Of a stretch of 64,000 nt of DNA, positions 19,481 through 58,388 are shown in pieces (the first letter of the stretch is position 1; every line of letters starts with the position of its first letter). Both the position numbers and the translations under genes were made by a program. The stretch is from Nemertoderma westbladi (lineage: Eukaryota > Animalia > Xenacoelomorpha), in assembly GCA_032718475.1 (NCBI GenBank), contig JAUCBJ010007712.1:41721-105720 (forward strand). The letters are read 5' to 3'. Under the pieces are notes generated by a model. The model was given only the letters and a program-made list of their open reading frames with translations. It did not search any database and was not told the origin of the DNA.

Positions 19481-19924
19481 CCCACGCTAATTTCAGCAAT
19501 CCGCTCGCTGCTCGACCTGTATCTTGTTTGTATCCACAGGAAGCCATTAATTTGATTTAATTAATACCCAATATTCTGGAACATTTTATTTTATCTCATA
19601 AGTAGCAGAATTAGGGTAACGATATAATCCATATTATTTTACTATTACTATTGCGTAGCTATTCTTACAAATACAACATGTTTTAGTATTTATTATATAG
19701 AATAAATAGCCAGGAGAGTATGATGAAAGCGCATGCGACTTTTAAACGTCCAATTCTCAGCTATTTCGTAACAATTCAGATTTCATTACATACCGGTATT
19801 AGGTATACAATTTCATTAAGATTTCTTGAAAACTTGGGGGGTGGGAGGAGGGGGGAGTTCCATATCAATGAATTACTGTACATTGACGAAATCCCAAAAA
19901 CCCCCATCACCCATGAAATTTCCT

Positions 19925-20330
19925 GGATCATCCGCATCTTCAGGGTCAGTTTAAGAAGCGTCTCACAAAAGTCATGGGCTGTCCACCATGCTTATTTTCT
20001 CCATGAGGCCGCCAAAGCACAATATTGTGCACTGGCTGGTCCTCATGGCCCCATATAATATATATAATAAAATATATTATTGAATGATGTGTTGGTCATC
20101 GCCCACCAACCGAGGTATAAAAACCAGTCGAGATTCATTCAACAACTATATATATAGGGCCTAAAGACATATAATACTGTAATAATATTATATATCTATG
20201 GGACTGCCAAATCCCGGGCAGACTCGTCAATGCTGCCCATGCCTTCCTTATAAGTATCCGAAGATCTCTACGTGATCCTGAATGGGGCCTGCTCTTCTTT
20301 AATACAGTGTCACATGGACTATGTGTGCTC
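19925..20330 (-). mobile_element. Small fragments of the same RTE family
   Basis: AAGTCATGGGCTGTCCACCATGCTTAT matches about 17109-17135, and AATGCTGCCCATGCCTTCC matches 17762-17780. Confidence 0.75.
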
Positions 20331-26894: not shown

Positions 26895-27126
26895 AGGGGG
26901 GGAAACTGGACGCAATAAAAATGCATCCCTCTCCAGGGGAAATTCGACGCAAATAACATCTGATTACTCTCAAACATAAAACTGTAACCTGTTCTATTGT
27001 GTTCAGTTTATTGTTTTGGTTAAAATAACATGCCACTGTAACCTGCTACTTTCCCTAAATTGAGAAATTAACATTGAGACGGGATTTTAATTCGCCAAGG
27101 CGGGTTTTGCGTCCAGTTCCCCCCCT
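26895..27126. mobile_element. MITE with G7-AAACTGGACGCAA terminal inverted repeats
   Basis: GGGGGGGAAACTGGACGCAA ... TTGCGTCCAGTTCCCCCCC. Related pieces occur at about 21487-21540, 39865-39945 and 58110-58225. Confidence 0.75.
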
Positions 27127-31371: not shown

Positions 31372-31616
31372 CTTGTATATTCTGCCAAATCTGCAAATTT
31401 AATGTTTTTTTATTCCTTTAGGTTTAAAAAAACCTTACGGAATACGGTAATTATTAATTACTTTCGTAGCTTACCGCGGTAGCGAATTTAGCACAATCAA
31501 GGACAACCAAATCAATAGGCCCTACGGTAGTTCTGTGGTTATTGCTTGCCTGTAACAGTGTAAAGGTGAAGGCACAGTGCAGCAGTGCGAGTGCCTAGCT
31601 GCCTAGATACTAAAAA

Positions 31617-32620
31617 ATGGACCCTTCTTTGAAAAAGTATACCAATAGCCCATCTAATCCCGCGTGTCAGTCGATTATGGACAAAGTGAAGAACGAACGA
31701 ACTCGCCGAATAAGTTTCGATTCCATCATCGATTCCAATAAGATTAATTACTCGAACGACAACCCCAATCCTCGTAAATCCCGCCGACGCGTCAGCACAG
31801 GGAGTTCGGCATACCAACCGCGATCCTCTTCCAACGAGAAACGGGTTTACCGTTTATCTTCCACGCCCGGGAACGGGAATGGCCCGGGCGACTCGGTAAA
31901 TCTCGAGTACCGAAACGTGGAGGAGTGGTTGGACTCGCATTCGGACTTCGTTGTCGACTACTTCCAGAGGAAAGCATCGCGCGCCATGGTAGACAGTTGG
32001 TTGCTCCGTCAGGCCTTCTCGTCTCCCCGCGACGCCGACTCGCTTCCGGGGTCAGTCGGTTCCGGATCACCGCGTCCGGATTCCGGTACCAACACTCCGA
32101 ATCGTCTGATATTCGCGGGAACCTCGGAACTCCAACTCCTCATACCGGACTCCCGGATAATGTCGACCGATGTCGACGGCAACCCGAGTTTCATTAACAC
32201 AGACGACGTCGCCAGAAAGTCTCCCCGCATTATGAAGTCTAGTAGAAGTCTCTTTAAACTCAGCCAACTGGACGACCGTCAATTGATGTTGGAATTGATT
32301 AAAGACATACAGAACGACTTGGACCTCACCAACTTGTGCCACAAAATACTTCAGAACGTGATCTTCCTAACGGCTGCGGATCGCAGCTCCTTGTTCCTCG
32401 TCACGGACGACGGTAATCGGCGATCTCTCGTCTCCAAGGTCTTCGACGTTAGCTCAGAGTCTACCGCTAACGATATGTCTAGCGACCCCATAGTGATACC
32501 TTGGGGTGCGGGAATCGTAGGCTACGTTGCCCAAACCGGCGAGGTGGTTAATATAGCCGACGCCTACCAGGATGATCGTTTTAACAAAACAATCGACTAC
32601 AAAACGGGATATTGTACGAG
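31617..32620 (+). CDS. Dual-GAF cyclic-nucleotide phosphodiesterase (PDE5/6/11 type), coding exon 1: N-terminus and GAF-A
   Basis: VEEWLDSHSDF, ADRSSLFLV, GIVGYVAQTGEVVNIADAYQDDRFN. Donor AG|GTGAGT at 32621, phase 2. Confidence 0.95.
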
Positions 32621-32752
32621 GTGAGTTATAGTGTTTCTGTCCAATCAGTAAATCAGGGTAGGTAGAGTCTGGTTGACTTAAGGTTGTTTATCTAGTACAG
32701 TAGTAGGCCCATCTGCAGATCTGGTTGAATTGACGTGGTTTTTACTTTTTAG

Positions 32753-34553
32753 ATCTCTGCTTTGCATCCCGGTGAAGAATCACAATGGTGACGTCATTGG
32801 TGTAGCTCAGGTTATCAACAAGAACGGTCGCGGTTCCCCAGAAGCCTTCACCGAGGTCGACCTCAACATCTTCCAGAACTACCTCGTCTTCTGCGGCATC
32901 GGTATAAACAACGCGATCCTGTACGAACAGTCGATACACCAGAACAAGCGGAGTCAGCTGCTACTCGAGTTGGCTAAGGACGTCTTCGACGAACAAAGTA
33001 CTTTACCTCGCCTTGTCACTCGTATATCGATACATCTACTGTCGCTACTCAGCTGCCAACGCTGCTCCGTGTACATCGTCGAGAATCCCACCGTAGGCGA
33101 CGGAATATTCTCCCAGGTTTTCGATTTGGATGCGGACGAACTCAGTAAGTACTCGTCGGATATTCCGGATAGCATCATCGACTCCAAGTTCCCAGTGTGT
33201 AAAGGGATAACCACGCACGTGGCTCTCACCGGGGAGACGCTGAACATACCGGACGCCTACGCCCATCCGCGCTTCGACCAAGCGGCGGATTCTGCGTCCG
33301 GATTCCGGACCAAAGCGCTGCTCTACATGCCGATACGGAATCAACACGGAGAGATTGTGGGAGTCACGCAACTCGTCAACAAACTCGACGGCTCCTGTTT
33401 CAACAAGAACGACGAGCATTTCTTTGAGGCATTCGCGATCTTCTGTGGGTTGGGCATCAACAACACTCGCCGTTACGAGAGCTCGTGTCGCGCGGTCGCT
33501 AAGCAGAGCGTTGCGCTCGACGTGTTGCGTTACCACGCGGTCGCAGCCGAAGAGGAAGCCCGTAGGTTCAGTGAGGGTCCCGTACCCAGCGGCCGGATCC
33601 TCAACCTTCACGACCTCCGATGCAACGATATCGACCTCAAAGATACCGAGACTCTCCAAGCCTGTCTCCGTATGTTCGTCGACCTCGACTTCGTGGAGAC
33701 ATTCAGTATCGACTATCGCACGCTCTGTCGCTGGCTGCTCAGCGTGCGAAAGAACTACCGCAAGATGACGTACCACAATTGGCGACACGCTTTCAGCGTC
33801 TCACAATTCATGTACGCCGCACTCAGGGCCACCGGCCTCCACAAAGAGATCGGGCAACTCGAGACCATGGTGCTGATCGTGGCTTGTCTCTGTCACGACC
33901 TCGACCACCGCGGCACCAACAATAGCTTCCAGAAGATCAGCGAGTCGCCTTTAGCTAAACTCTACTCTACGTCTCCGCTGGAACGCCACCACTTCGATCA
34001 CGCCTTAATCATATTGAACAGTAAAGGTTGCTCAATCTGGGAGAACCTCGATCAAGATACCCACTCGCGGGCCGTTAAGATACTCGAACACGCTATCCTC
34101 GCCACGGATTTGTCCTACTATTTCAAGAATCGGGAGACGTTTTTCTCTGCGGTCAACGCGGGATTGTTTAACATTAACAGCACCGTCCATCGCGGTATGC
34201 TGCGGAGTATGCTGATGACCGCGAGCGACCTCTGCCACTCCGTAAAGCCGTGGGATCTACATTTTACCGTCTCTAACTTGGTGGCCAGCGAGTTCTTCGA
34301 TCAGGGCGACATCGAGAAAAAGATGAATTTCACTCCAGTGGAGACAATGGACCGCGATAAGAAGGGCGAGATGCCCCGCCTGCAGGTCGATTTTATCGAA
34401 GTTATCTGTTTGCCTTTGTACGAATCGTTAGTTAAACTCTGGCCCTCCCTTCATCCCATCCTGTCGGGATGTCGGTTGAACCACGAGCGCTGGGTGGAGA
34501 TGCAGTCCTCCGTCCCGCCGCTGGGGGGCTTCCAGGAGACTGGGGTCTCCTGA
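32753..34553 (+). CDS. PDE coding exon 2: rest of GAF-A, GAF-B and class I catalytic domain (spliced protein 934 aa)
   Basis: Acceptor TTTTTACTTTTTAG|A restores TGYCTR-SLLCIP. Motifs YHNWRHAF, CHDLDHRGTNN, LERHH, ILATDL, TASDL, EFFDQGD and the invariant Gln in PRLQVDF. Confidence 0.96.
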
Positions 34554-39650: not shown

Positions 39651-40050
39651 CCGGTGTACAAGGCTGAGATAACTAACTCCCTCTTGAAATGACTCCCCAT
39701 TCATCTCAGCCTAGTCTGAGAACACTCATCAGTCGTCTCAGCCTAGTCTGAGAATACTCCCCAGTTATCTCAGCCTAGACTGATAACACTCCCCTTAGGC
39801 TGAGATGACTCACCTAATTGAGTTATAATTCATATCCGTACCTGTGTTATTTTCGTATATTGCATAAATAAAACTGTAACCTATGTTATTGAGTTATCGT
39901 TTATTGTTTTGGTTAGAAAAGCCCGCCACTGTAACCTGCTCCTTTCCGTTAATTAATAAATCTAGGGAGAAATGGGAAATGTTCTCAGCCTAGGCTGAGA
40001 AGTCCGGGGAGTCAAATTTGGTGGGGAGTTATCTCAGCCTGTTATACCGG
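39651..40050. mobile_element. MITE with 24-bp TIRs and internal tandem TCTCAGCCTAG repeats
   Basis: CCGGTGTACAAGGCTGAGATAACT ... AGTTATCTCAGCCTGTTATACCGG, with three units of about 33 bp at 39700-39795. Confidence 0.7.
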
Positions 40051-40141
40051 CACTGTGTTTACTAACAATGAACAGCTGACTTCAACTCTGGTTGAAATTC
40101 AAATAAAGAAAGTAAAACAGTTTAATTCGCCGTTAGGATTA

Positions 40142-41373
40142 TGTAAAAGCTTCTGTGGGATATAACTGGCCCCTTTTGCTTCGCAATCCAGTTTCCCCCA
40201 GGCGCTGGAATACTCTAAAAAGGTTCTCTAACTGTATATATATTCCCCTCGCCCGCAAGGTACCGTTACAGGTGTTTTAACGGACATAAAAGTCATTCTG
40301 CTATATACGTGTTTTGGCGGACATGGTAAGGCAAAAAACCTGTAATGCACCAACTACCTTTCACAGCTTAGCCGTGATGATTCATATTACGACATCTAAC
40401 AGCTGGTTGCTGATGACATGGAAACAGCCATTGGATGCATGGTTCTTTGTTTGGCTTGAGCCAATCAGAGCGATTTTTCCTGTCGACGTGTAGCTTTTCG
40501 GTCGATCATAAGGAGAGTGTTCAGTCTTACTGCTTTTACTTGATACTTTGTTGTTATTGCTGTCTAAGCCAGAAACACCGGCTCTAAGAACTCTAGTAAA
40601 ACTGCTTAGATTATAGAAAGTATAACTGTTACCGGCGGTGTTACCTCACTTAATTTAACTGCACTAATCATATTGTTTGTACTGCTATTTACCGTCAGTT
40701 ATTAATTGTATCTATTTGTTGATGGAAATATTGCTCTTTGGAGAATACGGATAAATCACCCAAAATTCCCAATTTTCTTGATACACTACAGGTTAGAGAG
40801 GCGGGCTATATATAACAATTGCGATTTATATCAATGTGGTGTGTATTGAATCTAATGTTATTTAGTAGACACTACCTGAGTCAATTGCTGTTCTCTTTAT
40901 GTGTGATCAAATATACTGACGGTCGGCAGAATAGTGTGCATGATTGTGAGTGTGATGTGACTGGTAACAAAGCATTTCCTAAAGAATGCGACTTATACTT
41001 TAATCATAAGCCTTATCGTTGCGTTTAGTATAAGTCCTAGCTCTGTTTAAATAGATAGAGCGCCACGTCCTAAAGGAACTGTTAATATTTCCCGAAAGTT
41101 AATAATATCTGTCAGAAATTACATATTAGTGATCTATCGAATAATACAATAGGTTTACACTGCAACCTTACACTGCAATAATAAAATCTAAGCATCCGAA
41201 TTCAGCCTCCCGGGTGTAGATCCATCGGGTGAATGATCGCGCATGGGCTGGCTTCGGCTAATGTTTTGTTTATTAGCATAAAATATTGTCGTATGCTAAA
41301 GGTGTGTTAATTAACTAAAAGACATATAAATTTTGGCAGGTTAAACTGCTAAAGGTCTTCAAAAGCGCGAACA
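40142..41373 (+). repeat. 5' LTR (1232 bp)
   Basis: Matches 51087-52315; the only difference I found is a 3-bp TGA indel near 40412. CCAAT at about 40461, Inr-like TCAGT at about 40521, AATAAA at 41180-41185. Confidence 0.97.
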
Positions 41374-43625
41374 GTAACAGTTACTTTGTATTGCAGTGTA
41401 AGCATTAAATACAGTTTAATACTGTTCTGTCGAACAGTAACAGTTATAATCTTATTGCAGTAGGCAATAAGGTTGCAAAATACCGTAGTGACCAGTAAAA
41501 CTGAACCGGTACTTTGTAGGTCAGTAGGCCTAACTGTCATCACCGGTACCGGTACTGCTGTACAAGTACATTTAGTATTATTTCGATTGTGATCTATTGT
41601 ATATTGTAGGCTGCCAGGGGAATAGGGATTGATCACCCCTCATTCTTTTGTATAGTTTACTTATTTCTGTCGGTTTTATTTACTAGTAGGCTAATATTGA
41701 GCAGAAGGCGTGTGACCCTGCTCAGATTGTTCAGATAATTGTAGGCTGAGCTGCTGTCTGACTGTTGTTGAGTTTGGAGAGATTACGGCGTGTGTAGAGT
41801 TTGTCTGATAAAGTGCCGTTAGTAAGTTGGGGCAGCCATATGCTGAAGGTCAATCCCCTCTTAAAGAATAAGTCGTACTACCGTGTTAGAACGCATACTA
41901 ACTAACAGTTTCAGAGTCTGCATATACTGTAGTTTATTTAGGCTTGATCGTAGTCTGCCAGTGTTTTAGTCTGTGTTTGTTTGTGTGGTCTGTTCAGGTA
42001 CCGTAATAGTTATTACTCAAATATTTTGTAGGCTGGATTGTTGTCTGGCTATTTTTGGGTCTGAAGGGATTGCTGCGTGTGTAGAGTTGGTCTGATCAAG
42101 TGCCGTTAGTAAGTTGGGGCAGCCATAAGCGGTAAGGTCAATCCCCTCTTAAAGAGTAAGTCGTACTACCGTGTTAGAACGCATACTAACTAACAGTTTC
42201 AGAATCTGCACATACAGTAGTTTATTTAGGCTTGGTGGTAGTCTGCCAGCGTTTGGTTTGTATTTTGTTTGAGTATTCTGTACGGGTAGCGTAATATTTA
42301 TTATTCAGAGTTTATGCGATTATTCGCAACATTCATGTCCCCAAGTTTATTCCTACAGTAATTGTGTTTGTTACACATACCGTTATAGTTAAACTAACCC
42401 CGGTACTACATCAGGGCTGCTCGGCGTAGGTAAAGACTGGAGATTTTGTGCTTCGGTCACTCCAGCAGATGCCGTGGTTCTTTTAACTGTTCAAGTATAT
42501 TTAACTACTGATTATTTGTTATACCGGTACTTGTACCTAATTTAGGGTTTAGTGTACAGTGCTTTCCGAAGTAATTAGTGTAGGCAGTATATTTGTGTTG
42601 TAAAGTGGTTGATAGGCACATTCGTTAGCTCTATTAGCTTCTGGGTAGGAACAATCCGTGATACATAACGTAGTACCTATAGCGATACGGTTATAGGTCG
42701 TCAGGCGGTGGTATTTTCCTATCTGGACAGTACAATATATTTACTACTACTTATTATTTAAATACCGTAGTACCCTGTCCGTTGTAATACAGTAATAACC
42801 AGAATTCTAACCCTTTGTTAGGCTGGTTTGTAGACTTCCTGTAAAATTACCCTAAAAATTTCGTACGTAATATTTTGTTGTGTTTAATTAGAGAATTAAT
42901 CTCACCCATATCGTAAGTAATTTGTAGTATTAAGTAACTTAGGTAAATTAGAATTATCAGTTTTAGTGTCAAATAAATAGCACTTCACTGAGAGGCGTTC
43001 AGCTTCTGTGTAGTGACTCCCCCAGAAATAATAACATTTATTTCAAATATTGACAAAACCCTTTTAAACGGGTATATAAATATTATAAATCAACTCAAAC
43101 GATTTATAAATAGTAGGCCTGCCATACAACAACTAGGTCTCAATATCAGTTGGACTACTGCTTAAATAACGGTAACAAAGTAAGTTAAAGTAACCAAGTA
43201 ACCCTAAAATATTCAGAAATTCAATTATTCTAAAATAATTGACATACCGGTATTTACCATAGGCTTATTATATTTATTTCTATAAATTTGTGCTGAAATC
43301 ATACCGGTACTCTGTAATTAATTATAGTCCAGAATTATACTTATATACTATAAGTGTAGGCTGTATACCGGTATTCACGATAGGCCTATTATATATTTAT
43401 ATATATTTGTGCTAAAATTATATACCGGTACTCTGTGACAAATCTAGTCTGTAATAATACTTATATATATATTATAAGCATACCGGTATTCTAATATATT
43501 ATATATATATCACGCTACACTGAGTAGCAGTATCGGTAATTAATTACTAGGCTAACAGTGATACTGAATTACTAGACTTGCTTTAACTGTAATATAACAG
43601 TAGGCATTCAACTGTACAATCAAAC

Positions 43626-46600
43626 ATGGCTGACACAAGGCAAACTCTGTCAGATAGTCTCCTAGAAACAACAGCTTGTTTCTCAGATCAAAGTGTAGAG
43701 AATCCCAGACCGAGGTCTGAAACCCCTCATACTGTAAGAAGGGCAACCCCTGCAGTGGTTGTGTCAGAACCTAGGTTGGTAGAAAAGATTTCGCAATTTG
43801 CGAAGTTAGTGAAGCGCCGTTGGTCTGCCATAGGCACTCGGGCCCAAGTCAAGCGGGATCAAGAAGAAGCTATAAAACAGCAGCAACCTCCTAGCCAAGA
43901 ACCGGGTCCTCAGCAGTCCGATAGCTCCAGTAGTTCGGATACTGTTGAGCGGACGCCAGAACGCGGAGCGAAGATGGCGGATACGGTTTATGATGGGCGG
44001 CCAGCCTGTGGGGAATCAACCAACGCCACTTCTTCTCAAGTGGAAAGTGAGGTGGAAAGCGAAGTGGAAAGTGAGGTGGAAAGCGAAGTGGAAAGCGAGG
44101 TGGAAAGCGAAGTGGAAAGCGAATTAACATCAGCAGAGAAGCCGCGAACTAGAGACGCTATCGACATTTATTTGTCCGACTATCAGCGATTCCTAGGAGA
44201 CGAAGAGTTGAGGAGACGGCTGTCTGGACTTTCCCCTAATAGTGAAGGAACCAAGCTTGTGTTGGACGCAATCGATGCCGAAATGTTAGCTGCAAACCAA
44301 GCTGAATGTGATGAAAAACTCCGCCTCATTAGAGTCCGAGAAGAACAAGTAAAGAAAGAACTGATAGAGAAAAGGAAGGTAGCAGCAGCAGCGGCGGCGG
44401 AAGCAGAAGCAGAAAGAAAAGAAGCAGAAGCCGAAAGAAAAGCAACAGTGGCAGAAGCAGAAGCCGAAAGAAAGTCGGCAGAAGCAGAAAGAAAAGCAGC
44501 AGTGGCAGAAGCAGAACGGAGAGCTTCTGAGGAGACTATCCAACTAGAGTTGGAAAATCTGCAAGAGACACAAGACAGTATAAATAAACAGTTTACTGCT
44601 AATCAAATGCAGATGATGAGAAAATCTACTCCCAAGCGCCAAGGATACACATCATCGGAGGAAGGCGAGACCACCGATCCTGAAGGCGGAGGAAATAGAT
44701 CTCGTCTAAGCAGGCGTAGAAAAACATCTCACCGTCATAAACTGCCTGATTTGCCCCCCGCTGTTAAAAGACAGCTAACTAGCACAGATTTAGGTAGTGC
44801 AGAACCCATAGAACAATTTATCCAGGTCAAAAGACTCCCTACTATAGTCGATGAACCTGAAATAATTAGGCCTGTAGTTCCCAAAGTCACTTCTGTGCTA
44901 GAGACCCCTGTACTTCCAGAGCTTAACTCTAAATTCCCTTTACATAGTACTACACTGCCTGTACCCGGTGGAACAGTCCATGCAAACACCCCTGTCCTGA
45001 GCATTGAGAGAGGAATCAAAGATTTGTCTCCCGTCGTCCCGCGTCAGCCCGCTACAATGTTGGCGACTCCCGCTTCGGCGGTTGAGTGGGTGGAAGAGGG
45101 ACGGCGGGGGATGAATCTCCTGCTAGGACAGATGCAGGAGACTGTCCACCAACTTAAGGGAACAGTGAGGGAAGGTAGAGCAGAGTTGCAAGAAGTGCAG
45201 CAAAGTATCGCGCTAGAACGCGACAAATTAGTCAATATACAAAAGGGCATACCAATACCCCCTGTAACATTGTGTCAACCTGTTAGGTCTGAAGTACTAC
45301 ATGCGCAAGGTGTGGAGCCTACACGCATCTATACTGCTAGTGAAGTTGAAACTCCTATAGCAAACCCTATTAAGGGTGATTATAGACCTGTTATTAATGA
45401 TATTCCCTATAGACCTGATAATGATCCGAGAAATTTATATACCGATAATTCGATATTAAATAACACGATGGTCCAAGAAAGCTTTACGCGTCAGATGGCT
45501 AGAACAGAAGCCCGCCAAGCGGTCAAAGTGGGAGAGATCGTCAAATTCAATGGAGATGAGATGAAATGGTTACCTTTCAACGAATATTACAAAGATAGCA
45601 TACAGAACTCTGTACTATCTAACGGAGAGAAACTTAGATTCCTCATCAAGTGCTTGGAAGGACCTCCCAAGTTAATGGCGTTAAAGTTTATTGGACATCC
45701 AGATGGATTAAGACAAGTTTGGGATACATTAAACATCAGGTATGGTAACAAGGATAACATAGCTAAGTATTTGTATGCAAAATTAGTAGCCCCCCGACAC
45801 TTCCTTAGTAGCGGGATTATAGAGTTTTCCGATGAAATTCAAGAGATCTGTAGACAACTGGACTGGTTAGGTAAGTCGCATGAATATCAGAGTTCCATGG
45901 TCATTGGAGCCGTAGTCTCTACTTTACCAAAGGGTGGAGTATGTACGCGCTGGGACAAGAAAGTGTTGTACATGAATGAACAACAACGCCGAAGCCCTAC
46001 CATGGCTGATCTCATGTCCTTCTTAGATAGTGAAGTAAAATTACAACTCATAAGGCAGTCCAGAGAGAAAACATCGGAAAATAAGGTAAGTGAGAAACCC
46101 GTTTCTAGGAGAAGGATAATACCAGTGTGTTATACTGATGACGGCGAAAGCCAAGCTTCTCAAGAAGAGGACAGCGGGAAAGACACAGAACGATCTTACT
46201 ATGACAACAAGACCTATAAAGACGTAAGTAAATACAAGTCTCGAACCAGTGACAGGAGAGAACAGGTAACAACAACTCCTCCTACGTCTCCTAAGAGAAT
46301 TCACGGAAGAAAGCCCGAAGAAAGAACGAGAGTGCATAACGTTAACCAAGTTAAGGTGAGTAACATCAAACCAAAATGTGCGCTGTGCGACGGGCCTCAC
46401 TGTTTGAGTGCGTGTGCTGAATTTCTAAAGAAATCCCCTGTAGACAGACGTACAGTCCTGTGGAATAAGCGGTTATGCTATAATTGCCTCAGATCAGGAC
46501 ACCAACGGCGAACCTGTTACTCCAACGCAAAGTGTGCAAAGTGTGGCGCGAAACATCACATTTTGTTACACAGTGAGTTCGAACGAGACAACCCGAGTCA

Positions 46601-47804
46601 GGTAAGTGAGCCCGAACTACATGTCCAATTCAGTGATGTGAATGACACTGACCAAGGTTCTGAGTGGGAAGGATTCTATACAGACGAATTCTCCGATGCC
46701 AACGAATCCTGTTATCTAATAAATACCACAGTGTATCGAGCACTTACGGATGAAAAGGACACTGACGAGTTTACTCCAACTCCTTTTGACAAACAACCAT
46801 CTTGGAAAGTTCCAACTTCCAACATAGGAATAAGAGAATTTCCTGTAGTGCAAGTTCGAGTTCATGGTCCCAACAAGAGTTACATAGTGAACGCCCTACT
46901 TGACTCCGGCAGCACAGGAACATTCATCGATCAAGAACTAGCCGAAGATATCTTTGCTGGACAACCCAAGTTCCGGACTAAATTGAATATGTCAGGAATT
47001 ATGCAGGTTTGGAAATCTACCCTAACGGCAGATTACTATGTAGGTGTGTTGTCCACCCCCCAGGATAAGTTAGGAACACAAGGTATAAGGTCAGTAAAAA
47101 TGGTGGCTATAAAGAACTTTGCTACTACTCAAGCAGAACCTTATAACTGGGACGAGGACGAGTGCATCCAACATCTTGAGATACCTCGATTCCAAACCGA
47201 TTATCCTGGAGTGCAAATACTCATCGGCCAAAACGCGCATGAGGCGCTCGAGCCATTAGAGAAACGGCCTGCTCAACCACAGCCACTACAAACCTATGCG
47301 GTAAGAACAAGAGTAGGTTGGTACTTCACTGGCCCTTCCCGTAGAACTCTCAAAGAGAGATTACCTCAACAACAGGTATACCAAGTAAAGGGGGAAGTGG
47401 AGAGCAGTGATGTGGACGACCCAACTGAGGGAACACCATACTCCTCAGATAATGACGATATTAACTCCAATGTAGATCAATGGAGACATTGCCTTGGGAC
47501 GATTAATCCAGCCGACATCGCTTCCAGAGGAGCAACTCCTCAAGAACTGATAGATACTCCAGGCTGGTTAGGTGGATCCGACTTCTTAAGTAAAGAAGAA
47601 GAAGAATGGCCTCCTCATCTTACCACGGCGGAGAGTAGACAGGCCAAGGGAGCGGAGAAACTAACACAACCACTCAATCGCCCAGCTAGTCGTTTATGTT
47701 TACTGGAAAGAGACCGAAAACTGTCCGGAAACTATGGAAGGCAAGATACTCTTCCTACGACTACTTCCCTAATCCGGCAAATATCTAGGGACTCCATAAC
47801 GTGA
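43626..47804 (+). CDS. BEL/Pao Gag-protease polyprotein fused to relics of RNase H and the integrase C-terminus (1392 aa)
   Basis: DUF1759-like segment (KFNGDEMKW...EKLRFLIKCLEG); knuckles CALCDGPHCLSAC, CYNCLRSGHQRRTC and CAKCGAKHHILLH; protease ALLDSGS; then QWRHCLGTINPADIASRG and NRPASRLCLLE. No RT YVDD motif and no DDE core. Confidence 0.95.
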   Translation: MADTRQTLSDSLLETTACFSDQSVENPRPRSETPHTVRRATPAVVVSEPRLVEKISQFAKLVKRRWSAIGTRAQVKRDQEEAIKQQQPPSQEPGPQQSDSSSSSDTVERTPERGAKMADTVYDGRPACGESTNATSSQVESEVESEVESEVESEVESEVESEVESELTSAEKPRTRDAIDIYLSDYQRFLGDEELRRRLSGLSPNSEGTKLVLDAIDAEMLAANQAECDEKLRLIRVREEQVKKELIEKRKVAAAAAAEAEAERKEAEAERKATVAEAEAERKSAEAERKAAVAEAERRASEETIQLELENLQETQDSINKQFTANQMQMMRKSTPKRQGYTSSEEGETTDPEGGGNRSRLSRRRKTSHRHKLPDLPPAVKRQLTSTDLGSAEPIEQFIQVKRLPTIVDEPEIIRPVVPKVTSVLETPVLPELNSKFPLHSTTLPVPGGTVHANTPVLSIERGIKDLSPVVPRQPATMLATPASAVEWVEEGRRGMNLLLGQMQETVHQLKGTVREGRAELQEVQQSIALERDKLVNIQKGIPIPPVTLCQPVRSEVLHAQGVEPTRIYTASEVETPIANPIKGDYRPVINDIPYRPDNDPRNLYTDNSILNNTMVQESFTRQMARTEARQAVKVGEIVKFNGDEMKWLPFNEYYKDSIQNSVLSNGEKLRFLIKCLEGPPKLMALKFIGHPDGLRQVWDTLNIRYGNKDNIAKYLYAKLVAPRHFLSSGIIEFSDEIQEICRQLDWLGKSHEYQSSMVIGAVVSTLPKGGVCTRWDKKVLYMNEQQRRSPTMADLMSFLDSEVKLQLIRQSREKTSENKVSEKPVSRRRIIPVCYTDDGESQASQEEDSGKDTERSYYDNKTYKDVSKYKSRTSDRREQVTTTPPTSPKRIHGRKPEERTRVHNVNQVKVSNIKPKCALCDGPHCLSACAEFLKKSPVDRRTVLWNKRLCYNCLRSGHQRRTCYSNAKCAKCGAKHHILLHSEFERDNPSQVSEPELHVQFSDVNDTDQGSEWEGFYTDEFSDANESCYLINTTVYRALTDEKDTDEFTPTPFDKQPSWKVPTSNIGIREFPVVQVRVHGPNKSYIVNALLDSGSTGTFIDQELAEDIFAGQPKFRTKLNMSGIMQVWKSTLTADYYVGVLSTPQDKLGTQGIRSVKMVAIKNFATTQAEPYNWDEDECIQHLEIPRFQTDYPGVQILIGQNAHEALEPLEKRPAQPQPLQTYAVRTRVGWYFTGPSRRTLKERLPQQQVYQVKGEVESSDVDDPTEGTPYSSDNDDINSNVDQWRHCLGTINPADIASRGATPQELIDTPGWLGGSDFLSKEEEEWPPHLTTAESRQAKGAEKLTQPLNRPASRLCLLERDRKLSGNYGRQDTLPTTTSLIRQISRDSIT

Positions 47805-49189
47805 TAGCATGTGGAGTGGGCGTGTGACTATATCATTTTATATTTGTTTTTATTTTATATTTATGTATGTATTATTATGTAATTTTATTATAATCGTTTT
47901 CTTTAATTTTATTTAGTAGAATGTTATTTTAGAGATTATTTAGTAGATTAGTGCAATATATTAGTGCTTATTACGTATGTAATTACTTATAATATATATT
48001 TAGTGCGACGGCGAGAAATAATTATTTTTCTCTTTCCTTACTGTCCGTATTATATTATAAATGCGAGACTATAGTAAGATGACATGTCAGTACTTCTTAA
48101 AGTACAATAAAGCCACTACTATATTTAAGTATTATTGGTAGGCAGAGTATTAGGAATGCAAAGTTCAGATCCTCGAGTCTCGGCTAAACCAAGCTCTGGG
48201 TAGACCTTGGAAACGACTTGCCTCTTCACACTGACATTGCTTCGTGCGATATTGCTCTTCTACCTTATAACAAATAATACATATAGTAGCGTGATGTCCC
48301 TCTAACAGTAGCGTAAATCGCAAATAAATCTGTTAAACTTTTGACCATCTGTAATTCTAGTCGATTAAGGTATCGTGGCACCCACCGATATACTTGAAAG
48401 ACAAATTCTAGAATCAGTGGTTAACGTCCCCAGACAAGTTCTGGAATAAATCGGTGCCCATCCTAAATATTAATTTAATATTTATTAAAATTTGTAAAAT
48501 CCTGATCCTTCAAAATTTCTAGTCACTTAAGATATCGCAGTATTTACCGATATTCTTAGAAGGACTATTTTATAGAATTAAGGATCCTAAGTCCCCAGAT
48601 ATGCTCTGGAATAAAATTTGTGTCAATTTAACATCAAATAATAAAATTCACGGGAATAAATTTAAATTCATATTCAAATGAATTTCATAAATTGTCATTT
48701 TGTACAATTTATAACATTCCCAAAATTCCAGTAATTAATAGATCATGGGAGCGGAGATTCATATTGAGTGTACTAGAGTGTGAGAATCTCCAACATATAG
48801 TCAATAGCCGATAAAATTTATAAAATCATGCATAAAGAGGATATTGACAATTAAAGAATTACTATTAAATAACATCCCAGATCTGTATGCATGAGAATTG
48901 CCCTAATTCTACCGCTAGTTTTCCATAATGTCACCATGACAACACCCACGCTAGAATTAGAAGCAAGTTAAAGGAACAATAAAAAGCTTGCCCCATTGCG
49001 TAGCATAAGAGTATACATAGCGCACTATTAGTATCCAAGGATACATAGTAATAACGTGACATTCTGGAAGACACTGACTAACGGACAAATGGCATGCATG
49101 TGTGCAATAAGTAATGATTGCATGGAATTTGTGCGTTTATAGGTGAATGATACTACTAAAGTGTGTTTACAGTAGCTAATCGCAATTGT

Positions 49190-49591
49190 CTCTCTCTGGA
49201 TGGCACATTCACAAGAATGCTACGCCGGGTACATTGTGTCAAGTACAATGCACACATCTCCAACCAGACACTATATAACATTGGAGGTGTCTCATTGGTT
49301 CCCCCAAGCTTGACACTAGAACAAAATCGCCTCCGCTTTGCAGGACATTGCTTTCGCCGTGAGGACCAGCCAGTGCATAATCTTGTACTTTGGCAGCCTC
49401 ATGGAGTGAATAAGCATGGTGGACAGCCCATGACTTTCTTGAGACGCATCTTAAAGGACACTGGCCTTAAAGATGCGGATGATCTAGCAAATGTCATGGG
49501 TGATAGGGAGTTGTGGCGGTGCAATTTTGTTGACAAGCCGGCATAGCATTCTTAAAAATGCAGCTGCAATGCAGCATGCCGATCCTAGTAG
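49190..49591 (+). mobile_element. 5'-truncated RTE LINE nested in the BEL element
   Basis: Homologous to 16990-17340; TAGTAG tail; 13-bp TSD TAATCGCAATTGT (49177-49189 and 49592-49604). Confidence 0.9.
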
Positions 49592-49841
49592 TAATCGCAA
49601 TTGTAAAGTAGCCTAACTCTACCGAGATAACCTCAAGTGGATTCAAGCCTTTGGGACGGACAGTGGTGGGACTTGTGTCGATTATCGTTGTCGTGTTGTT
49701 GCTACATGTTGGCGCAAACACCGCGACAACGGTACATCGGCGCTGAGAAACCCACTGTCCGGGGTCAAAGACTAGTAGGCAGCGACGCCCGCTTGCCTAA
49801 ATATTGACTCATACTAATATTAATAAACTCAGATAGCAGAT

Positions 49842-51000
49842 ATGACGGAATTAATAGAAGATGACCTTGGTATTAGAGAGCGATATACTCTACCTTTACA
49901 AGCGTTTATGGATAGCTTGATACGCGGTGAAGCCGATCCGACTATTACGGAGGATGATGGTCGTTATATCGAACCGCCGATGTCCCAAGAGCAACTTACG
50001 CGTGAATTGGACTATCGAAAATTAACCGCTCGCTATACGCATCGTAATGGTACGTGTATGGACTTCTTAACTACCGGCCATCCTATCGATTTACATGATA
50101 CGGACGATGTAGACACCCTAAAGGGAAATGGTTCTATTTAAATATCATACCCAGCGGAGTCGTAACGATAAACCGAGAATAGATCACGAAAATTCTATTC
50201 GTAACAGACTGGGAAGCCGAACACGAACCACTATGCCTAGAATCTGAGGAGATTCAGCCTATCGCGCTCGGAACAGCGACAACGATTACATCCTAGAATG
50301 GTATCAAGGTCCAAGGTATCATGGAAATTTATTGAGCGTATTGCAGATTTAATAATTTGCATATTTTTGCGGTTTGCCCTCAATTTATGACTCAATGTCA
50401 CCACTGTCCACTAAAGGGACACGCCAGTTTCGATTGCCCTTTTAATCGCGATTTGGAAAGCGTAGATGAAATGATCACACTACGTTACATTAGAGCTTGG
50501 GAAGCGAACGCTGATTTACATCGTGATTCGCGCCATCGCTATTATCCTGGACGCGCTTACGAAGGAATTTATGCGTTCCATCCTTATCTATTCGCTTCTG
50601 TCGAACAGAAATCACGCATATCGAGTTACAGGAAGTATATCGACGGCCTTACGAGTACCGAGCCCGCGAACGCGAGTTGGAAAGAACCATTAAACCAAGG
50701 AAGTTTCTAACTGCCTATGGTCCACCCACGGCCCTCATTCAGACCACTCGTAAAGGACCCGTAAGAGCGGCTGTCTTGAAACGAGCTCTCAAAGCCGTTA
50801 GACCCTCTCCCCCGACGTTGATGTCAATCAACTCGGCACTTCGACTGGCGGATACACCGACCATAATCCTATACCCTCTGATGCAATCATGTTGCACCCT
50901 TCACCCAGGAGTTATAGCCCTCCTTGTAAAGTGGCTCGCCCCAAAGAGAAAAAGACTCTGGCTAGCTTTAAAAAACTGCGTAAACGCCGTCCGCGCATGA
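49842..51000 (+). pseudogene. Interrupted accessory coding region with a CCHC zinc knuckle in the 3' part of the BEL element
   Basis: Consecutive sense ORFs (49842-50141, 50357-50710, 50677-51000); CHHCPLKGHASFDC fits CX2CX4HX4C. Confidence 0.5.
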
Positions 51001-51086
51001 AAGACTAACTGTTTAGAGTATTTTTATATTTTAGAAACTGTGATTTTGTATATTTTATAGACTTAAATCCCATTTTCTGGGAGCGG

Positions 51087-52315
51087 TGTAAAAGCTTCTG
51101 TGGGATATAACTGGCCCCTTTTGCTTCGCAATCCAGTTTCCCCCAGGCGCTGGAATACTCTAAAAAGGTTCTCTAACTGTATATATATTCCCCTCGCCCG
51201 CAAGGTACCGTTACAGGTGTTTTAACGGACATAAAAGTCATTCTGCTATATACGTGTTTTGGCGGACATGGTAAGGCAAAAAACCTGTAATGCACCAACT
51301 ACCTTTCACAGCTTAGCCGTGATGATTCATATTACGACATCTAACAGCTGGTTGCTGACATGGAAACAGCCATTGGATGCATGGTTCTTTGTTTGGCTTG
51401 AGCCAATCAGAGCGATTTTTCCTGTCGACGTGTAGCTTTTCGGTCGATCATAAGGAGAGTGTTCAGTCTTACTGCTTTTACTTGATACTTTGTTGTTATT
51501 GCTGTCTAAGCCAGAAACACCGGCTCTAAGAACTCTAGTAAAACTGCTTAGATTATAGAAAGTATAACTGTTACCGGCGGTGTTACCTCACTTAATTTAA
51601 CTGCACTAATCATATTGTTTGTACTGCTATTTACCGTCAGTTATTAATTGTATCTATTTGTTGATGGAAATATTGCTCTTTGGAGAATACGGATAAATCA
51701 CCCAAAATTCCCAATTTTCTTGATACACTACAGGTTAGAGAGGCGGGCTATATATAACAATTGCGATTTATATCAATGTGGTGTGTATTGAATCTAATGT
51801 TATTTAGTAGACACTACCTGAGTCAATTGCTGTTCTCTTTATGTGTGATCAAATATACTGACGGTCGGCAGAATAGTGTGCATGATTGTGAGTGTGATGT
51901 GACTGGTAACAAAGCATTTCCTAAAGAATGCGACTTATACTTTAATCATAAGCCTTATCGTTGCGTTTAGTATAAGTCCTAGCTCTGTTTAAATAGATAG
52001 AGCGCCACGTCCTAAAGGAACTGTTAATATTTCCCGAAAGTTAATAATATCTGTCAGAAATTACATATTAGTGATCTATCGAATAATACAATAGGTTTAC
52101 ACTGCAACCTTACACTGCAATAATAAAATCTAAGCATCCGAATTCAGCCTCCCGGGTGTAGATCCATCGGGTGAATGATCGCGCATGGGCTGGCTTCGGC
52201 TAATGTTTTGTTTATTAGCATAAAATATTGTCGTATGCTAAAGGTGTGTTAATTAACTAAAAGACATATAAATTTTGGCAGGTTAAACTGCTAAAGGTCT
52301 TCAAAAGCGCGAACA
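51087..52315 (+). repeat. 3' LTR (1229 bp)
   Basis: Near-identical to 40142-41373, preceded by a PPT-like tract and followed by TSD GATTA. Confidence 0.97.
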
Positions 52316-52554
52316 GATTACTCACAAAGTCTGCCGAATTATTTCCAGTGCGGTTCCCCCCAGTAGGCCCACTCTATACGCCCCAAAGGGATACTCCAGT
52401 ATGACCTACTCATTTAGCTACCGGTACCATTTAAGGATGTAAGGCAGAGATGCGCCTAGTTAAGAAACGAAAATTGCCCAGGCCCCATGCGGGAATCTAA
52501 CCCACGACCTCCTGATACATGTGAATTCAGGTGGGACCTCAGGTTAATTCAAGA

Positions 52555-53873: not shown

Positions 53874-56800
53874 TTAACAATCTATGTTGAGTCTCTCACA
53901 GAGCCACTCACTAATACCGTTCTCATATGTTTTTATCCACAAAATGTGGACAAGAACAGAATCTCGCAGATTAGCCACTAACTTGATAACAACCTTGCCA
54001 AGTACCTGTTCCATGAAGCGATTAAAGTGATCCAAATCATAATCTGATGTAAACCGACTGACCAAATTTTGCATAACACCTTCCATAAGCTCGCCTTCCC
54101 TCCCCAATGTATCACCGACAAGATACTTCGAGAATCGTTTCACTTTTTGAGGATGTCGTTGCATGTAGTTCCAAGTAAGCATATGGCCGAAGTGTTTGGA
54201 GAGGAGAGACTTCAGCACGGTGAGGCGCGTTGTATCATCAACTAAAGACCACTTGTTAAAGACCACACCTATAAGCCTTGAAATTTGCCAAGGTTTCTCA
54301 GTACAGGCCAATCCAACAACCACATTTTCCATGTCACTTTTCAAGTACTTCTTTAAATAATCATCCCAGATTTCGTCGTCCGAAAATTTAAATCCGACGC
54401 AGAATGTCATGTAGGATGTCGGCATTTCAATTGGATTGCTTTCATTGCTCTTCACCCAATCGGTGAAGAGTTGCAAATGATGATTAATACATTTTCTGTT
54501 TCCATGACTGCAGGCAATGGAGACAATCAGCTGTTCGGTGGCAGGATTTATTCTTTTAGAAAGATCATCTTTATTTGCGATTATCTTGTATATGGGTCCG
54601 ATAATGTATCGAGATATATACCTACGAGTGAGACTGTAAACGTCGGTGTTACTGAAGGCTTGATCCAAGAACTCTATAACCATATTGCCAATGTACCATG
54701 GCTCGTAGCTACTCTCCTTGGATAAAAACTGGAGCATCTTCACGCAGACAAGCCCGTTAACAATTCCGGATTTTGAGAGATGGAATGAGCTCAGGAGAAT
54801 ATCTGCCCGACTGATTACGGGCACTGCATTTATGTCATCTTCATAAAGTTGCCTCAGTAGTTTGTTCCAGTTGTCGGTTTTATGGTTGTACGTAGTCATA
54901 AGGTAACTGGTGTGGTCCACATTGCAGAGTACCCAATCGTGTTGTTCCAATTTATAATTGGTTCGGACTTGAAACGTTTTGGATGTAAACATATATATCT
55001 CGGAAGTACCCTCCAAACTTGTCAAACACTTTAAAGCTATTATCCAGGTGTGGTCTTCCTTTGATGGAATGAAAGGCGACTGGCTAAACTCCAACACTGT
55101 GAGATTTTTGCTGCTATCCAGCCAATAATTAACTTCAACCACTGGATAACCAATTTGCTCCAAATAACTATTCATAAATGATTCCACTCCAATTTGTTGG
55201 AAACTCGATGATTCGTTTCCCATTACTTTCCATAATTGCCGGCTTTCTGTAGATTTGAAAGCATTAATTCGCATGTATCTCTGAAGAGCAAATCGAAAAT
55301 TATCTCCCAAAAGTAGTGCAAGCATTCGTACGATAGATGCCCCTTTAGAGTATGAGATGTGATCAAACATATCGAGTATATCAACTGGTTCGGGGACTTG
55401 CACAACAGCGTGGTTGCCATCAAAGTGTGAATCTTGTTGAGTTAGAATAGGGACCATATGCGAAGTGTAAACTAAATCTACCTTGTGATCTCCTGCGTTT
55501 AGGATATTTTGAACACCTACAACCTCGAAGTAGGCCGCGAAACCCTCGTTCAACCACAATTCCGACCACCAAGAAGGTGTGACTAAGTTCCCGAACCACT
55601 GATGCGAAACCTCGTGGCTAACAAATAACCCTACTATTTCTTTTTGATCTTGAGAAGCCGTTTTCTCGTCAACAAGAAACCCAGCGCATTCGTAAGTTAT
55701 TATTCCCCAGTTTTCCATTGCGCCAGCAAAATGTCTGGGCACCGTGAGAGCATCAAGCTTAGGCAGGGGATATTTCATATTAAAGTATTCTTCAAAAAAT
55801 ACGACTGATTTTACGGTCATATCTAGTCCATGGTCAAGTAATCCTCTGTCCACATCTTTTCTGGGACCCCATGCCTTTACTACAACACCACTCTCCTCTA
55901 TCACACGCTGAACCGAAGAGTACCCAAGTTTGTCAACAAGTGCCAAAGTTATTAAATAGGTTGACATCGGTTTGGTATTTTGGAAGGTAGTCTTTACCCA
56001 GCCTGGTGTTACAACATCGGTTCTATTAGCCGGCATGTTACTAAGAGCGGTGTAAAGATCCTCATGCGTTACTGACACTATAAACACGGCTTTAAAGGAC
56101 GGCTCATCCCAGCACGGTAGAGCAGTCCTCGCGTATTCCGGCTGCATTTGCGTGGAAATATGTTTAGTAAATTCGCCGGATGCGTTTAAAGACCGATCGT
56201 AGTGCCACCAGTGTATCCCCGTTAACTTATCATCCGGACGATTGGCGGGGCTGATCATCTCTCCGTTGAACTTTATATGCAGCGTGTAATCTTCTCCGGA
56301 TGATAAATTAGAGTTCATCACTATAATGTAGTATGGCTGATCAATGACATTTCGCTGACAATGGATTTTAGGAGATCGCCCACCATGCTTAAGTGGTTCG
56401 AGGGATGTATCACCTTTATTTATAAATAAATCTTTAACATGAAGAAGTATTACCGGGGTGGCTTCTACACATTTAACAGCGATATCCACGTGACCTGAGA
56501 ACCGGCTGATATTTGGATTTACGATCCATTCCACGTGGTAATGGTATGGTCTAATATTCAATGGCAATCGTCTAGGAAATCGCTCTTTTCGCGAACTTTT
56601 AGGAAGAAATTTCATGTAAAAGCCCTCCGAACAAAGATCGGGGGGTTCTTCTACTTCTGGAGTAGTGTTTACGCCACTATTAGTGGAATGTACATTCGGT
56701 TCTTGATCAATGTTAGTGTGCTTTACATTTTTTTCCGGCTTTTGAGTAATTGTGCAACTTTCTTTAATTACTCGACGAATTACTATACCAGCAATTAAAG

Positions 56801-57233
56801 CAGCAGTAAGGATGAGTATAATGGCCGCCAATCCGCCTAGTATAAGACGCAATTTTGATAAGCGAATGACATCGCTGTTGTAAGGGCGATCTTGGGGGTC
56901 GTTCAATCGCTTGTCTTTAAATTGAATCACAATCCCATTGTTGATCGATGACTCAGACGGTGCAACTTCTGACATTGGCGATGCGTCGCCCAGTTTGTGA
57001 ATATCGCCCTCTTGCGATGGTATACCAAGGAAACGGGGTTGAGAGAGGCCGAGTCTGTGGATAGGAAGTGCTGGGGACCTGTTTCCCAAACCTTGAACAC
57101 CGGGTGCCGAGGCGATCGGGGGTACAGATTGTTTGGCATGGTAACGGGAATCCGGCAACGGGGAGGGTGGATCGTAGGCGGCTTTGATTGGAGTCGGAGT
57201 CGGAGTACACCGGACTACAGCATCAGCTGACAT
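53874..57233 (-). CDS. Type II membrane M1 zinc aminopeptidase (aminopeptidase N/A/TRH-DE/IRAP family), intronless, about 1119 aa
   Basis: TM helix LILGGLAAIILILTAALIAGIVI; ARTALPCWDEP; GAMENWG; HEVSHQWFGNLVT...WLNEGFA; SYSKGAS. The first ATG is at 57233; the frame is open up to an acceptor-like TTTCTTAG| at 57324. Confidence 0.96.
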   Translation of the reverse strand: MSADAVVRCTPTPTPIKAAYDPPSPLPDSRYHAKQSVPPIASAPGVQGLGNRSPALPIHRLGLSQPRFLGIPSQEGDIHKLGDASPMSEVAPSESSINNGIVIQFKDKRLNDPQDRPYNSDVIRLSKLRLILGGLAAIILILTAALIAGIVIRRVIKESCTITQKPEKNVKHTNIDQEPNVHSTNSGVNTTPEVEEPPDLCSEGFYMKFLPKSSRKERFPRRLPLNIRPYHYHVEWIVNPNISRFSGHVDIAVKCVEATPVILLHVKDLFINKGDTSLEPLKHGGRSPKIHCQRNVIDQPYYIIVMNSNLSSGEDYTLHIKFNGEMISPANRPDDKLTGIHWWHYDRSLNASGEFTKHISTQMQPEYARTALPCWDEPSFKAVFIVSVTHEDLYTALSNMPANRTDVVTPGWVKTTFQNTKPMSTYLITLALVDKLGYSSVQRVIEESGVVVKAWGPRKDVDRGLLDHGLDMTVKSVVFFEEYFNMKYPLPKLDALTVPRHFAGAMENWGIITYECAGFLVDEKTASQDQKEIVGLFVSHEVSHQWFGNLVTPSWWSELWLNEGFAAYFEVVGVQNILNAGDHKVDLVYTSHMVPILTQQDSHFDGNHAVVQVPEPVDILDMFDHISYSKGASIVRMLALLLGDNFRFALQRYMRINAFKSTESRQLWKVMGNESSSFQQIGVESFMNSYLEQIGYPVVEVNYWLDSSKNLTVLEFSQSPFIPSKEDHTWIIALKCLTSLEGTSEIYMFTSKTFQVRTNYKLEQHDWVLCNVDHTSYLMTTYNHKTDNWNKLLRQLYEDDINAVPVISRADILLSSFHLSKSGIVNGLVCVKMLQFLSKESSYEPWYIGNMVIEFLDQAFSNTDVYSLTRRYISRYIIGPIYKIIANKDDLSKRINPATEQLIVSIACSHGNRKCINHHLQLFTDWVKSNESNPIEMPTSYMTFCVGFKFSDDEIWDDYLKKYLKSDMENVVVGLACTEKPWQISRLIGVVFNKWSLVDDTTRLTVLKSLLSKHFGHMLTWNYMQRHPQKVKRFSKYLVGDTLGREGELMEGVMQNLVSRFTSDYDLDHFNRFMEQVLGKVVIKLVANLRDSVLVHILWIKTYENGISEWLCERLNIDC

Positions 57234-58388
57234 AGTCTCTGTTCTTAAGTGGTCTCCATAGCCACAGTTTGTGGTCTTGAGACTCAACACCGTTACTTTG
57301 GTATAAAGGTCGTTACATTTCAACTAAGAAACATGTAGCGCATATATTATATCTAACTGGGTCTTTATAATAGTAAAAAATATGAACTCAAGTACAAAGA
57401 TTTTCGTCAACAATTATCAAAAGTAAAAAAAAATTTTTATAAAAACTAGTTCAAATATTCAAATATGTTATATCCAATTAAAACAATGTTTTAAGTTAAA
57501 ATATTTAATAATAACAATAACTAACTACAGTAATAATTATTAACATTACGCCGTGCTGTTCAATTCGATATTGGGGGTGCTAGTGCAATTGACCTTATAA
57601 CAATGACAAATTTATTATCGGTTAAATAATAAAATTAATTTAGGAATCTTATATTATTCTTTCTTTACTGTACAGTAGCTATAAAATAAACTAAAAATCC
57701 ACATCGGTGTCTGTGATTATAATCGTTACGAAAAACGTATGGATATATATTAGGAAGAATTGACCAGTTGCGTCAGCTAACCTTGTCACAGATTCACGCT
57801 TTAGTACCATCGAATTTAAGTTATTATTCAAATTAACTGAGAATTAATCCCCTTGTATTCACTGCAATGGTGGTTTTATAATTGGGTTTGCGGTTTCACA
57901 AGTTAATTTATTCATTAATGAATATAAAGGAGGATCCCAATGATCAGCCAGGGATCCTCCCATCAGCACAGCCGGCCGCGGAATTTGCTTTACAAAGGCA
58001 ATTGAGACAATTTTGGTTTACCCTATTACGAATACGACCATCGCTTTGACAGATTAGGGGGGGGGGGGGGGGGGGGGGTAGGGGAATCAAAATTCATCCA
58101 TCTACTGTAACATCTCCATGGGAAAATCGACGCAAATAACAGCTGATTACAGTCCGTCTGATCTGTTGATTTTCGTTTATTGTTTTGGATATAATAATGT
58201 GCCAATGTAACCTGCTCTTTTCCCTTTGATACTTTAACAATGAAAGGGATCTTTTAGGCTCATTAAGCAAGGAATGCGGCTTGTTCGGTTCACCATAATG
58301 GATGATCTTCCACAGTAAACCCTTCCAAAGGGTTTCCCAAGTTACCTTTAATTCCCATTTATCGACCATTCAAGGATTAAAGGTAAAG

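Follow-up and report, generated by a model that had tools for sequence, protein, structure and literature searches.

A BEL/Pao element in Nemertoderma westbladi

A 64-kb stretch of contig JAUCBJ010007712.1 from Nemertoderma westbladi (called the window below; its coordinates are used throughout, on the + strand unless marked otherwise) contains a long terminal repeat (LTR) retrotransposon of BEL/Pao type, which probably primes its minus-strand DNA synthesis with 10-13 nucleotides (nt) of its own LTR RNA instead of a transfer RNA (tRNA). Self-comparison delimits a 5′ LTR of 1232 nt with TG...CA ends (40142-41373) and a paired 3′ LTR of 1229 nt (51087-52315), the two differing solely by one 3-nt indel. 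A 5-bp target site duplication, GATTA, is found on both sides (40137-40141 and 52316-52320), and the insertion target is a host repeat, an uninterrupted copy of which at 60246-60440 (-) carries a single GATTA. Because the LTRs form a TG...CA pair, GATTA stands on either side and the empty site holds only one GATTA, the LTR boundary at 41373 is firm. The position of the polypurine tract, ending in GGGAGCGG, abuts the 3′ LTR (51075-51086).

Between the LTRs, a single open reading frame (ORF) with its ATG at 43626 and its stop at 47804 codes for Gag (DUF1759), zinc knuckles and protease, followed by the tail of the RNase H region. The ORF matches PF03564 (E 8e-12), and its 23 database homologues are BEL/Pao-type polyproteins with 19-43% local identity, 22 of which contain PF03564 and 21 PF05380. 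Past the protease, the ORF skips from about residue 795 to about residue 1355 of homologue P0004, in the tail of its RNase H region. Reverse transcriptase (RT), most of RNase H and integrase are absent from the window copy, and no more homology was found in 47601-51090; since RT and integrase are absent, this copy is non-autonomous. The LTR pair, the short target duplication, the polypurine tract and the BEL-type homology of Gag, protease and RNase H are features of BEL/Pao, a group for which a complete Pol (RT, RNase H, integrase) is also expected, and Pol is incomplete here. On these features, the element derives by deletion from a BEL/Pao retrotransposon; it inserted recently and is non-autonomous. 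It occupies a long branch in a Gag-protease tree of 27 rows, which holds no named references for lineages such as Sinbad, Suzu or Tas. Logan contigs of the family from four runs (X1, X3, X4 and X5) cover 30 of 30 bins of the element at a very high summed depth, which is not to be equated with copy number; the BEL/Pao family of the window is clearly abundant, and it is young.

The 3-nt difference between the LTRs (40411-40413) is itself a common polymorphism of the family (depth 263315/470347 in X1) and could stem from conversion, slippage or assembly mixing. The 2.25-kb leader contains tandem duplications of 288 nt and 121 nt (41739-42307 and 43244-43510) and several acceptor-like TTGTAG sites, and the 3.3 kb from the ORF to the 3′ LTR (47805-51086) are without BEL homology and include a repeat (49193-49555) that recurs at 16990-17337 and 19894-20049. 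An Rfam search of 40000-43700 gave one match to U12 at 43147-43266 (-) that is probably due to chance (25 bits against a cut-off of 53).

The primer-binding site is complementary to the LTR

Directly 3′ of the terminal CA of the 5′ LTR lies GTAACAGTTACTTT (41374-41387), the first of two copies of the presumptive primer-binding site (PBS1). It opens a 63-nt PBS-plus-stem module (41374-41436) whose end repeats the last 6 bases of the LTR and which some family copies lack; the second copy, PBS2 (GTAACAGTTATA), follows at 41437-41448. The candidate self-primer was recognized by its complementarity to these sites at 40617-40632, with its core at 40621-40632 and a predicted 3′ end at 40632, and a second copy of the primer site is present in the 3′ LTR (51563-51574).

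The initial annotation had proposed self-priming on the strength of these complementarities, each of which we recovered. Positions 40623-40632 form 10 perfect Watson-Crick pairs with 41374-41383; the pairing of 40617-40632 with 41374-41387 extends to 14 bp with a 2-nt bulge (-12.0 kcal/mol); and 40621-40632 pairs perfectly over 12 bp with PBS2. It had also described the element as devoid of a tRNA-type PBS, which is correct, as the first TGG past the LTR end occurs at 41775 and there is none within 400 nt. The element thereby lacks the PBS complementary to a tRNA 3′ end that the international committee for virus taxonomy (ICTV) lists as a BEL/Pao trait. The annotation further stressed that the pairing ends exactly at the LTR boundary; it had placed that boundary correctly, but the coincidence has little weight alone, being expected by chance in about 3 cases out of 4.

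In the replication of LTR elements, minus-strand strong-stop DNA gives rise to the U5 end of both LTRs. The 3′ LTR of the element ends at the base equivalent to the one adjoining PBS1, and since the U5 ends derive from strong-stop DNA, priming of the window copy must have taken place at 41374 or no more than a few bases away. Judged from the bases there, a CCA-ended tRNA cannot pair at this priming position.

Such complementarity is rare in dinucleotide shuffles of the LTR: a match of at least 10 bp to PBS1 arose in 10 of 5000 and one of at least 12 bp to PBS2 in 3 of 5000, while allowing offsets of 0-3 raised the count to 39 of 5000. A metagenome scan with the pattern of the site returned 10 loci, none of which was similar beyond the 19-nt pattern, and two scans of viral contigs contained no relatives of the window element.

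Matching insertions among family copies

Variation within the family was read from the short Logan contigs. A variant of PBS2 with an extra T after 41443 is present in 4 of 4 runs (depth 79244/189182 and 22 contigs in X1; 27577/55926 and 6 contigs in X3; 21.7/21.7 and 2 contigs in X4; 260/692 and 4 contigs in X5). An extra A at 40624/40625 in the LTR site appears as loose ends of contigs in 2 of 4 runs, with 4 + 1 contigs on either side in X1 and one contig in X5, the depth of which is 90.7 against 335.4 for the window-type contig. Together, the two insertions yield a perfect 13-bp duplex, and the half-site of the palindrome on which both sites are built is lost at both places. Because the duplex is restored while the half-site is removed at both sites, the matching indels favour base pairing over a shared DNA motif.

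Loose ends also indicate that the sequence 3′ of 40633 is strongly divergent among family copies. Copies with a single module exist, in which the LTR end is joined at 41431, with joints skipping 62-67 nt. In one X3 contig (depth 152), 70 unrelated bases precede 40628, and their last bases could be a YAG acceptor lying within the primer; this contig may hint at intron-bearing copies of the family but could be any insertion. No GT-AG joint was seen in the contigs of X4, a run merely guessed to be RNA and with no bearing on expression.

Distant relatives whose PBS pairs with a predicted LTR splice junction

Animal BEL/Pao contigs contaminate prokaryotic assemblies (G001-G008, loci L011-L074), with 41 matches in G002 alone. 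We took 28 BEL stretches from this source as relatives and dropped 19, of which 18 had no LTR pair or no readable LTR end and one (L057) had a truncated repeat, leaving 9 readable elements from 5 assemblies. The PBS of 7 of the 9 is self-complementary over 10-12 nt to a predicted splice junction in the LTR of the same element, and in 6 the pairing with the junction of a GTRAG...YAG intron is perfect over 11-12 nt. For L013, L015 and L017, such pairing was reached in 0 of 1000 shuffles each, and in 4, 0 and 0 of 300 when the LTR end was not assumed. For L055, L056 and L072, whose LTR ends are fixed by paired repeats, the counts are 1, 2 and 0 of 500. The seventh element, L014, pairs at 10 of 11 positions (5/1000 shuffles at a fixed LTR end). 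The duplex begins at the first or second base past the LTR end in L013, L014, L015, L055, L056 and L072, as it does in the window. The ninefold set also includes L065, from the same assembly as the junction-type L014, with a TGG-type PBS (L065:4044-4060) that we take to be tRNA-Lys-like and that has no self-complement, so one host may harbour both modes of priming.

The initial annotation had pointed to compensatory changes in related copies as a check of its proposal, and among the distant relatives two such changes were seen. The sister families L055 and L056, whose LTRs are 85-89% alike, differ at 2 of the 3 bases that end the exon (CAC vs TAA), and the PBS bases facing them read GTG and TTA, respectively; by this comparison, they are two compensatory changes in cis, on the same contig. 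Within the window family itself the indels match, on contigs too short to link the two sites. In the Gag-protease tree, which left out L014, L017, L055, L056, L065 and L072, a 98/95 branch separates a side holding the window element, L013 and L015 from the insect elements.

In these distant relatives, an 11-12-nt primer would thus be split by an LTR intron and joined by splicing, while the window copy has its primer contiguous. Within the LTR of the window copy, no GTRAG...YAG junction matched the PBS. Loose GT...AG junctions there gave at best matches of 9 and 11 nt, below the contiguous 10 and 12, and a splice-junction primer in this LTR was rejected. It is possible, although we lean slightly to the doubtful side, that a branch of BEL/Pao builds its primer from its own RNA, usually through splicing of an LTR intron, and that the window family is an intron-less form of it. 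Such a form could arise by reverse transcription of a spliced 3′ LTR, and intron-bearing copies may persist.

Predicted RNA structure and candidate transcript starts

The leader just 3′ of PBS1 pairs with the LTR downstream of the primer site. In this outer stem of U5-leader type, the LTR strand lies at 41155-41181, of which 41167-41180 forms 14 bp with the leader strand at 41389-41402, and none of 2000 shuffles did as well. A second leader strand (41452-41477) can form two stems of 10 bp each with 41161-41181 (35/2000 shuffles), or else fold into a hairpin of its own. When the RNA was folded as a whole from 40617 or 40621, the helix between the LTR site and PBS2 had a pair probability of 0.96. 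With the PBS blocked, folding also predicted a possible inner stem, made by 41234-41242 and the end of the LTR (41365-41373), at a probability of about 0.5-0.7. Long stems within the LTR (6 of at least 9 bp) are about as numerous as the chance estimate, and no use was made of them. The only AATAAA of the LTR (41180-41185) is the likely polyadenylation signal.

Scans of the LTR for consensus motifs place a candidate promoter with TATA-like boxes at 40235-40241 and 40302, and a donor-like GTAAG at 40326, upstream of the primer site, along with a second candidate promoter composed of a CCAAT box at 40461 and an initiator-like TCAGTC at 40521-40526. In L013, L014, L055 and L056, judging by their TATA boxes, transcription probably begins about 20 to 200 nt upstream of the primer. 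Since the predicted starts of these relatives lie at such distances before it, the primer need not sit at the cap; it probably forms the 3′ terminus of a longer, capped fragment, as opposed to the first 11 nt in the self-priming element Tf1.

Priming would then proceed as follows. A transcript beginning upstream of 40621 would contain 40621-40632, which would anneal to the PBS at 41374, held in a loop by the predicted 14-bp LTR-leader stem. By analogy with Tf1, RT/RNase H provided in trans by a complete family member would cut after 40632 and extend the 3′-OH into the LTR end. The cut would mark the beginning of the functional R, with everything upstream recovered from the copy in the 3′ LTR of the RNA. 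When the plus strand is made, copying the primer would maintain the match between it and the PBS.

Weighing self-priming against other explanations

For the self-priming put forward in the initial annotation, the missing CCA-type PBS, the flanking LTR-leader stem, the matching indel and the self-complementary PBSs of relatives give support from sequence; nothing supports the Tf1-like detail of the start. A number of observations weigh against self-priming as a whole. The evidence is computational, with start, cleavage and primer RNA modelled on Tf1. For the start at 40617-40623 that the annotation expected, there is no TATA box 30 nt upstream and nothing marks a start there, and transcripts from the TATA-like box downstream of the primer site (40807-40813) would miss the primer. 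The annotation had named this box, near 40808, as a potential refutation; the box is real, but alone it does not refute self-priming, since Tf2 uses alternative starts and makes short primer-less transcripts beside competent long ones (PMC5341516; here and below, papers other than PMC8742986, PMC3118150 and PMC554778 are cited from excerpts). The LTR site is an interrupted palindrome, which makes its complement a near-direct repeat as well; its half-site, CNGTTA/TAACNG, occurs in the LTR more often than expected (10 vs 2.8, 0/500 shuffles). The inner stem was matched by 58 of 500 shuffles, which is not beyond chance, and was predicted in just 1 of 4 relatives folded.

The family and its relatives contribute further points of this kind. 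On the short contigs, the PBS and LTR-site indels are not linked on any one molecule. In X4, where the PBS insertion stands at a depth of 21.7/21.7, the sole contig across the LTR site is nevertheless of window type (depth 5.2), and no A-insertion loose end occurs among the best 16 of 22 rows of X3. The loose ends tabulated for the LTR site include no substitutions at all, hence they provide no base-by-base conservation figure. A contiguous site comparable to that of the window occurs in none of the 9 relatives (best 8-9 nt), one of them (L011) could be assigned to neither PBS type, and over Gag-protease the relatives are 20-27% identical to the window, with L055, L013 and L056 as the best loci. 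For L013 and L015, the LTR ends are themselves inferred, the match of L017 begins 8 nt beyond its paired repeat, and the pairing of L014 is insignificant without its assumed LTR end (9/300). The window element also sits on a long branch, and its placement in the tree is unsure.

The palindrome and its half-site raise the question of whether one palindromic DNA-binding motif is repeated at the two sites, their complementarity a by-product, with the primer being another. The half-site, which we presume to be an Ovo- or Myb-like motif and which might mark germline transcription-factor sites in 40142-43600, is enriched in the leader as well (16 vs 7.0 expected, 2/500 shuffles) and not in the ORF or the flanks. 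When 8 motifs were planted in each shuffle, a match to PBS1 arose in 77 of 5000, yet the 12 bp of PBS2 remained rare (2 of 5000); the enrichment makes the PBS1 match less surprising and leaves PBS2 unexplained. Moreover, each of the matching indels deletes a half-site and keeps the complement, and the relatives share the geometry with unrelated letters, and we regard a mere DNA motif as very improbable. Scarcely lower still do we rate priming at 41374 by a fragment of a host tRNA other than its CCA end. The anticodon arm of tRNA-Asn, a putative candidate, might form some 8 pairs, wobbles included, with the invariant core, whereas the LTR site of the element gives 12-13 perfect pairs; ARAGORN found no tRNA genes in the window. 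Half-molecule tRNAs are reported as primers for some Copia lineages and, among plant elements, for Copia only (PMC6317226), and a single fragment cannot explain the differing PBSs of the relatives, each of which matches the junction of its own LTR.

Less remote, but in our judgement still unlikely, is a real RNA structure that does not prime: the pairing might occlude or present the PBS, or its palindrome might mediate dimerisation, a role proposed for the conserved hairpin site of the fungal GalEa elements, while another 3′ end primes. Self-pairing of PBS1 is possible over 10 bp with an A-A mismatch in the middle (-8.2 kcal/mol), and hence PBS1 could likewise bind its near-identical copy PBS2; the GalEa hairpin, too, is reported to have an A/A mismatch (PMC5445492); and covariation is evidence of pairing, not of priming. 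What speaks for a primer is that the duplex starts where the 3′ end of a primer is needed and spans 11-12 nt as in Tf1, that the PBSs of relatives match the junction, that the T-insertion variant breaks the palindrome of the window, and that no other primer is in sight.

Comparison with known priming systems

Self-priming has been described for Tf1/sushi and Tj1 (PMC4600332). Like these Ty3/gypsy chromoviruses (Tf1, Tf2, Tj1 and Tf1/sushi), the window element lacks a tRNA PBS and has its PBS right after the terminal CA; it also shares with Tf1/sushi an 11-12-nt LTR complement and a leader that pairs, just 3′ of the PBS, with the LTR downstream of the primer (the 'pretzel'). Tf1 requires three duplexes, namely that of primer and PBS and two in which PBS-adjacent sequence pairs with the LTR downstream of the primer (10.1101/2022.12.06.519325). 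In the window, by contrast, the inner duplex (5′ of the PBS, U5-IR-like) is predicted but not significant, and the arrangement is known here from sequence alone. Further differences are that R-U5 would be about 740 nt, that there is no sign of a primer at the cap, that the primer of relatives is split by an intron, and that BEL/Pao Gag and the RNase H tail take the place of chromovirus features. To the extent that these features can tell, the window element would work like Tf1 in its self-priming but is not a member of Tf1/sushi, as it does not have Ty3/gypsy ancestry.

Members of the Belpaoviridae are described by the ICTV as having an 18-nt PBS for tRNA-Arg or tRNA-Gly and a poorly understood replication (PMC8742986), and Achilles as having a PBS for tRNA-Tyr (PMC4580426). 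The window element resembles them in its TG...CA LTRs, 5-bp duplication, DUF1759 Gag, protease, RNase H tail and polypurine tract beside the 3′ LTR; it differs in having no tRNA PBS and in the deletion of RT and integrase. As in the window, self-priming has been predicted outside the yeast model, from complementarity between PBS and LTR, for the plant elements Tcn1 (gypsy) and TAR (copia) (PMC6317226); these belong to other superfamilies, and the excerpt does not cover BEL/Pao. The Conserved Hairpin Site of GalEa Copia elements (PMC5445492) likewise has a palindrome in the place of the PBS, matches no tRNA and shows an A/A mismatch with a downstream copy. According to the excerpted text, its authors find no LTR complement, whereas the window has one. 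In addition, variants of the window family break the palindrome, copies with a single module exist, and the second copy lies 52 nt away (as against 12-41) and is absent from some copies; membership in this class was rejected.

No paper on self-priming or a splice-built primer in BEL/Pao was found by a literature search that had subscription journals, Repbase Reports and supplements outside its scope and partly missed the slash spelling 'BEL/Pao'. The main text of PMC3118150 mentions no PBS, primer or tRNA; PMC554778 mentions no PBS, primer binding, priming or tRNA; and the excerpts of PMC3601003, PMC13524379, PMC8220671, PMC6934838 and PMC5443660 contain no BEL/Pao self-priming.

Other features of the window

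A long tandem satellite with units of about 30 nt and about 91% identity fills positions 1-16000. At 31614-34553 (+), a GAF-GAF-phosphodiesterase is encoded in two long open frames of the same phase (336 and 623 aa) that leave hardly any room for an intron. A single open frame of 1149 aa at 53874-57323 (-) codes for an M1 aminopeptidase with an ERAP1-like C-terminus; it adjoins a 32-nt tandem array and repeats common to 26930-27088 and 39868-39961, and may be either a host gene with few introns or a passenger carried by a mobile element. A 535-aa open frame with an RVT_1 domain at 61794-63401 (+) probably belongs to a long interspersed nuclear element.

Implications for BEL/Pao elements

If the window element does prime with its own LTR RNA, self-priming would extend to a third LTR superfamily, and to a group that is restricted to animals. 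This would bear on whether self-priming is ancestral or has originated repeatedly, a question raised in the excerpted text of PMC3601003. Such elements would be missed by any annotation that demands a tRNA PBS, and tRNA fragments directed against the PBS would presumably fail to control them. Were the primer of relatives indeed built by splicing, host splicing would gate transposition and tie it to host RNA processing. The family of the window is abundant and young, and its primer RNA and start sites can therefore be searched for directly.

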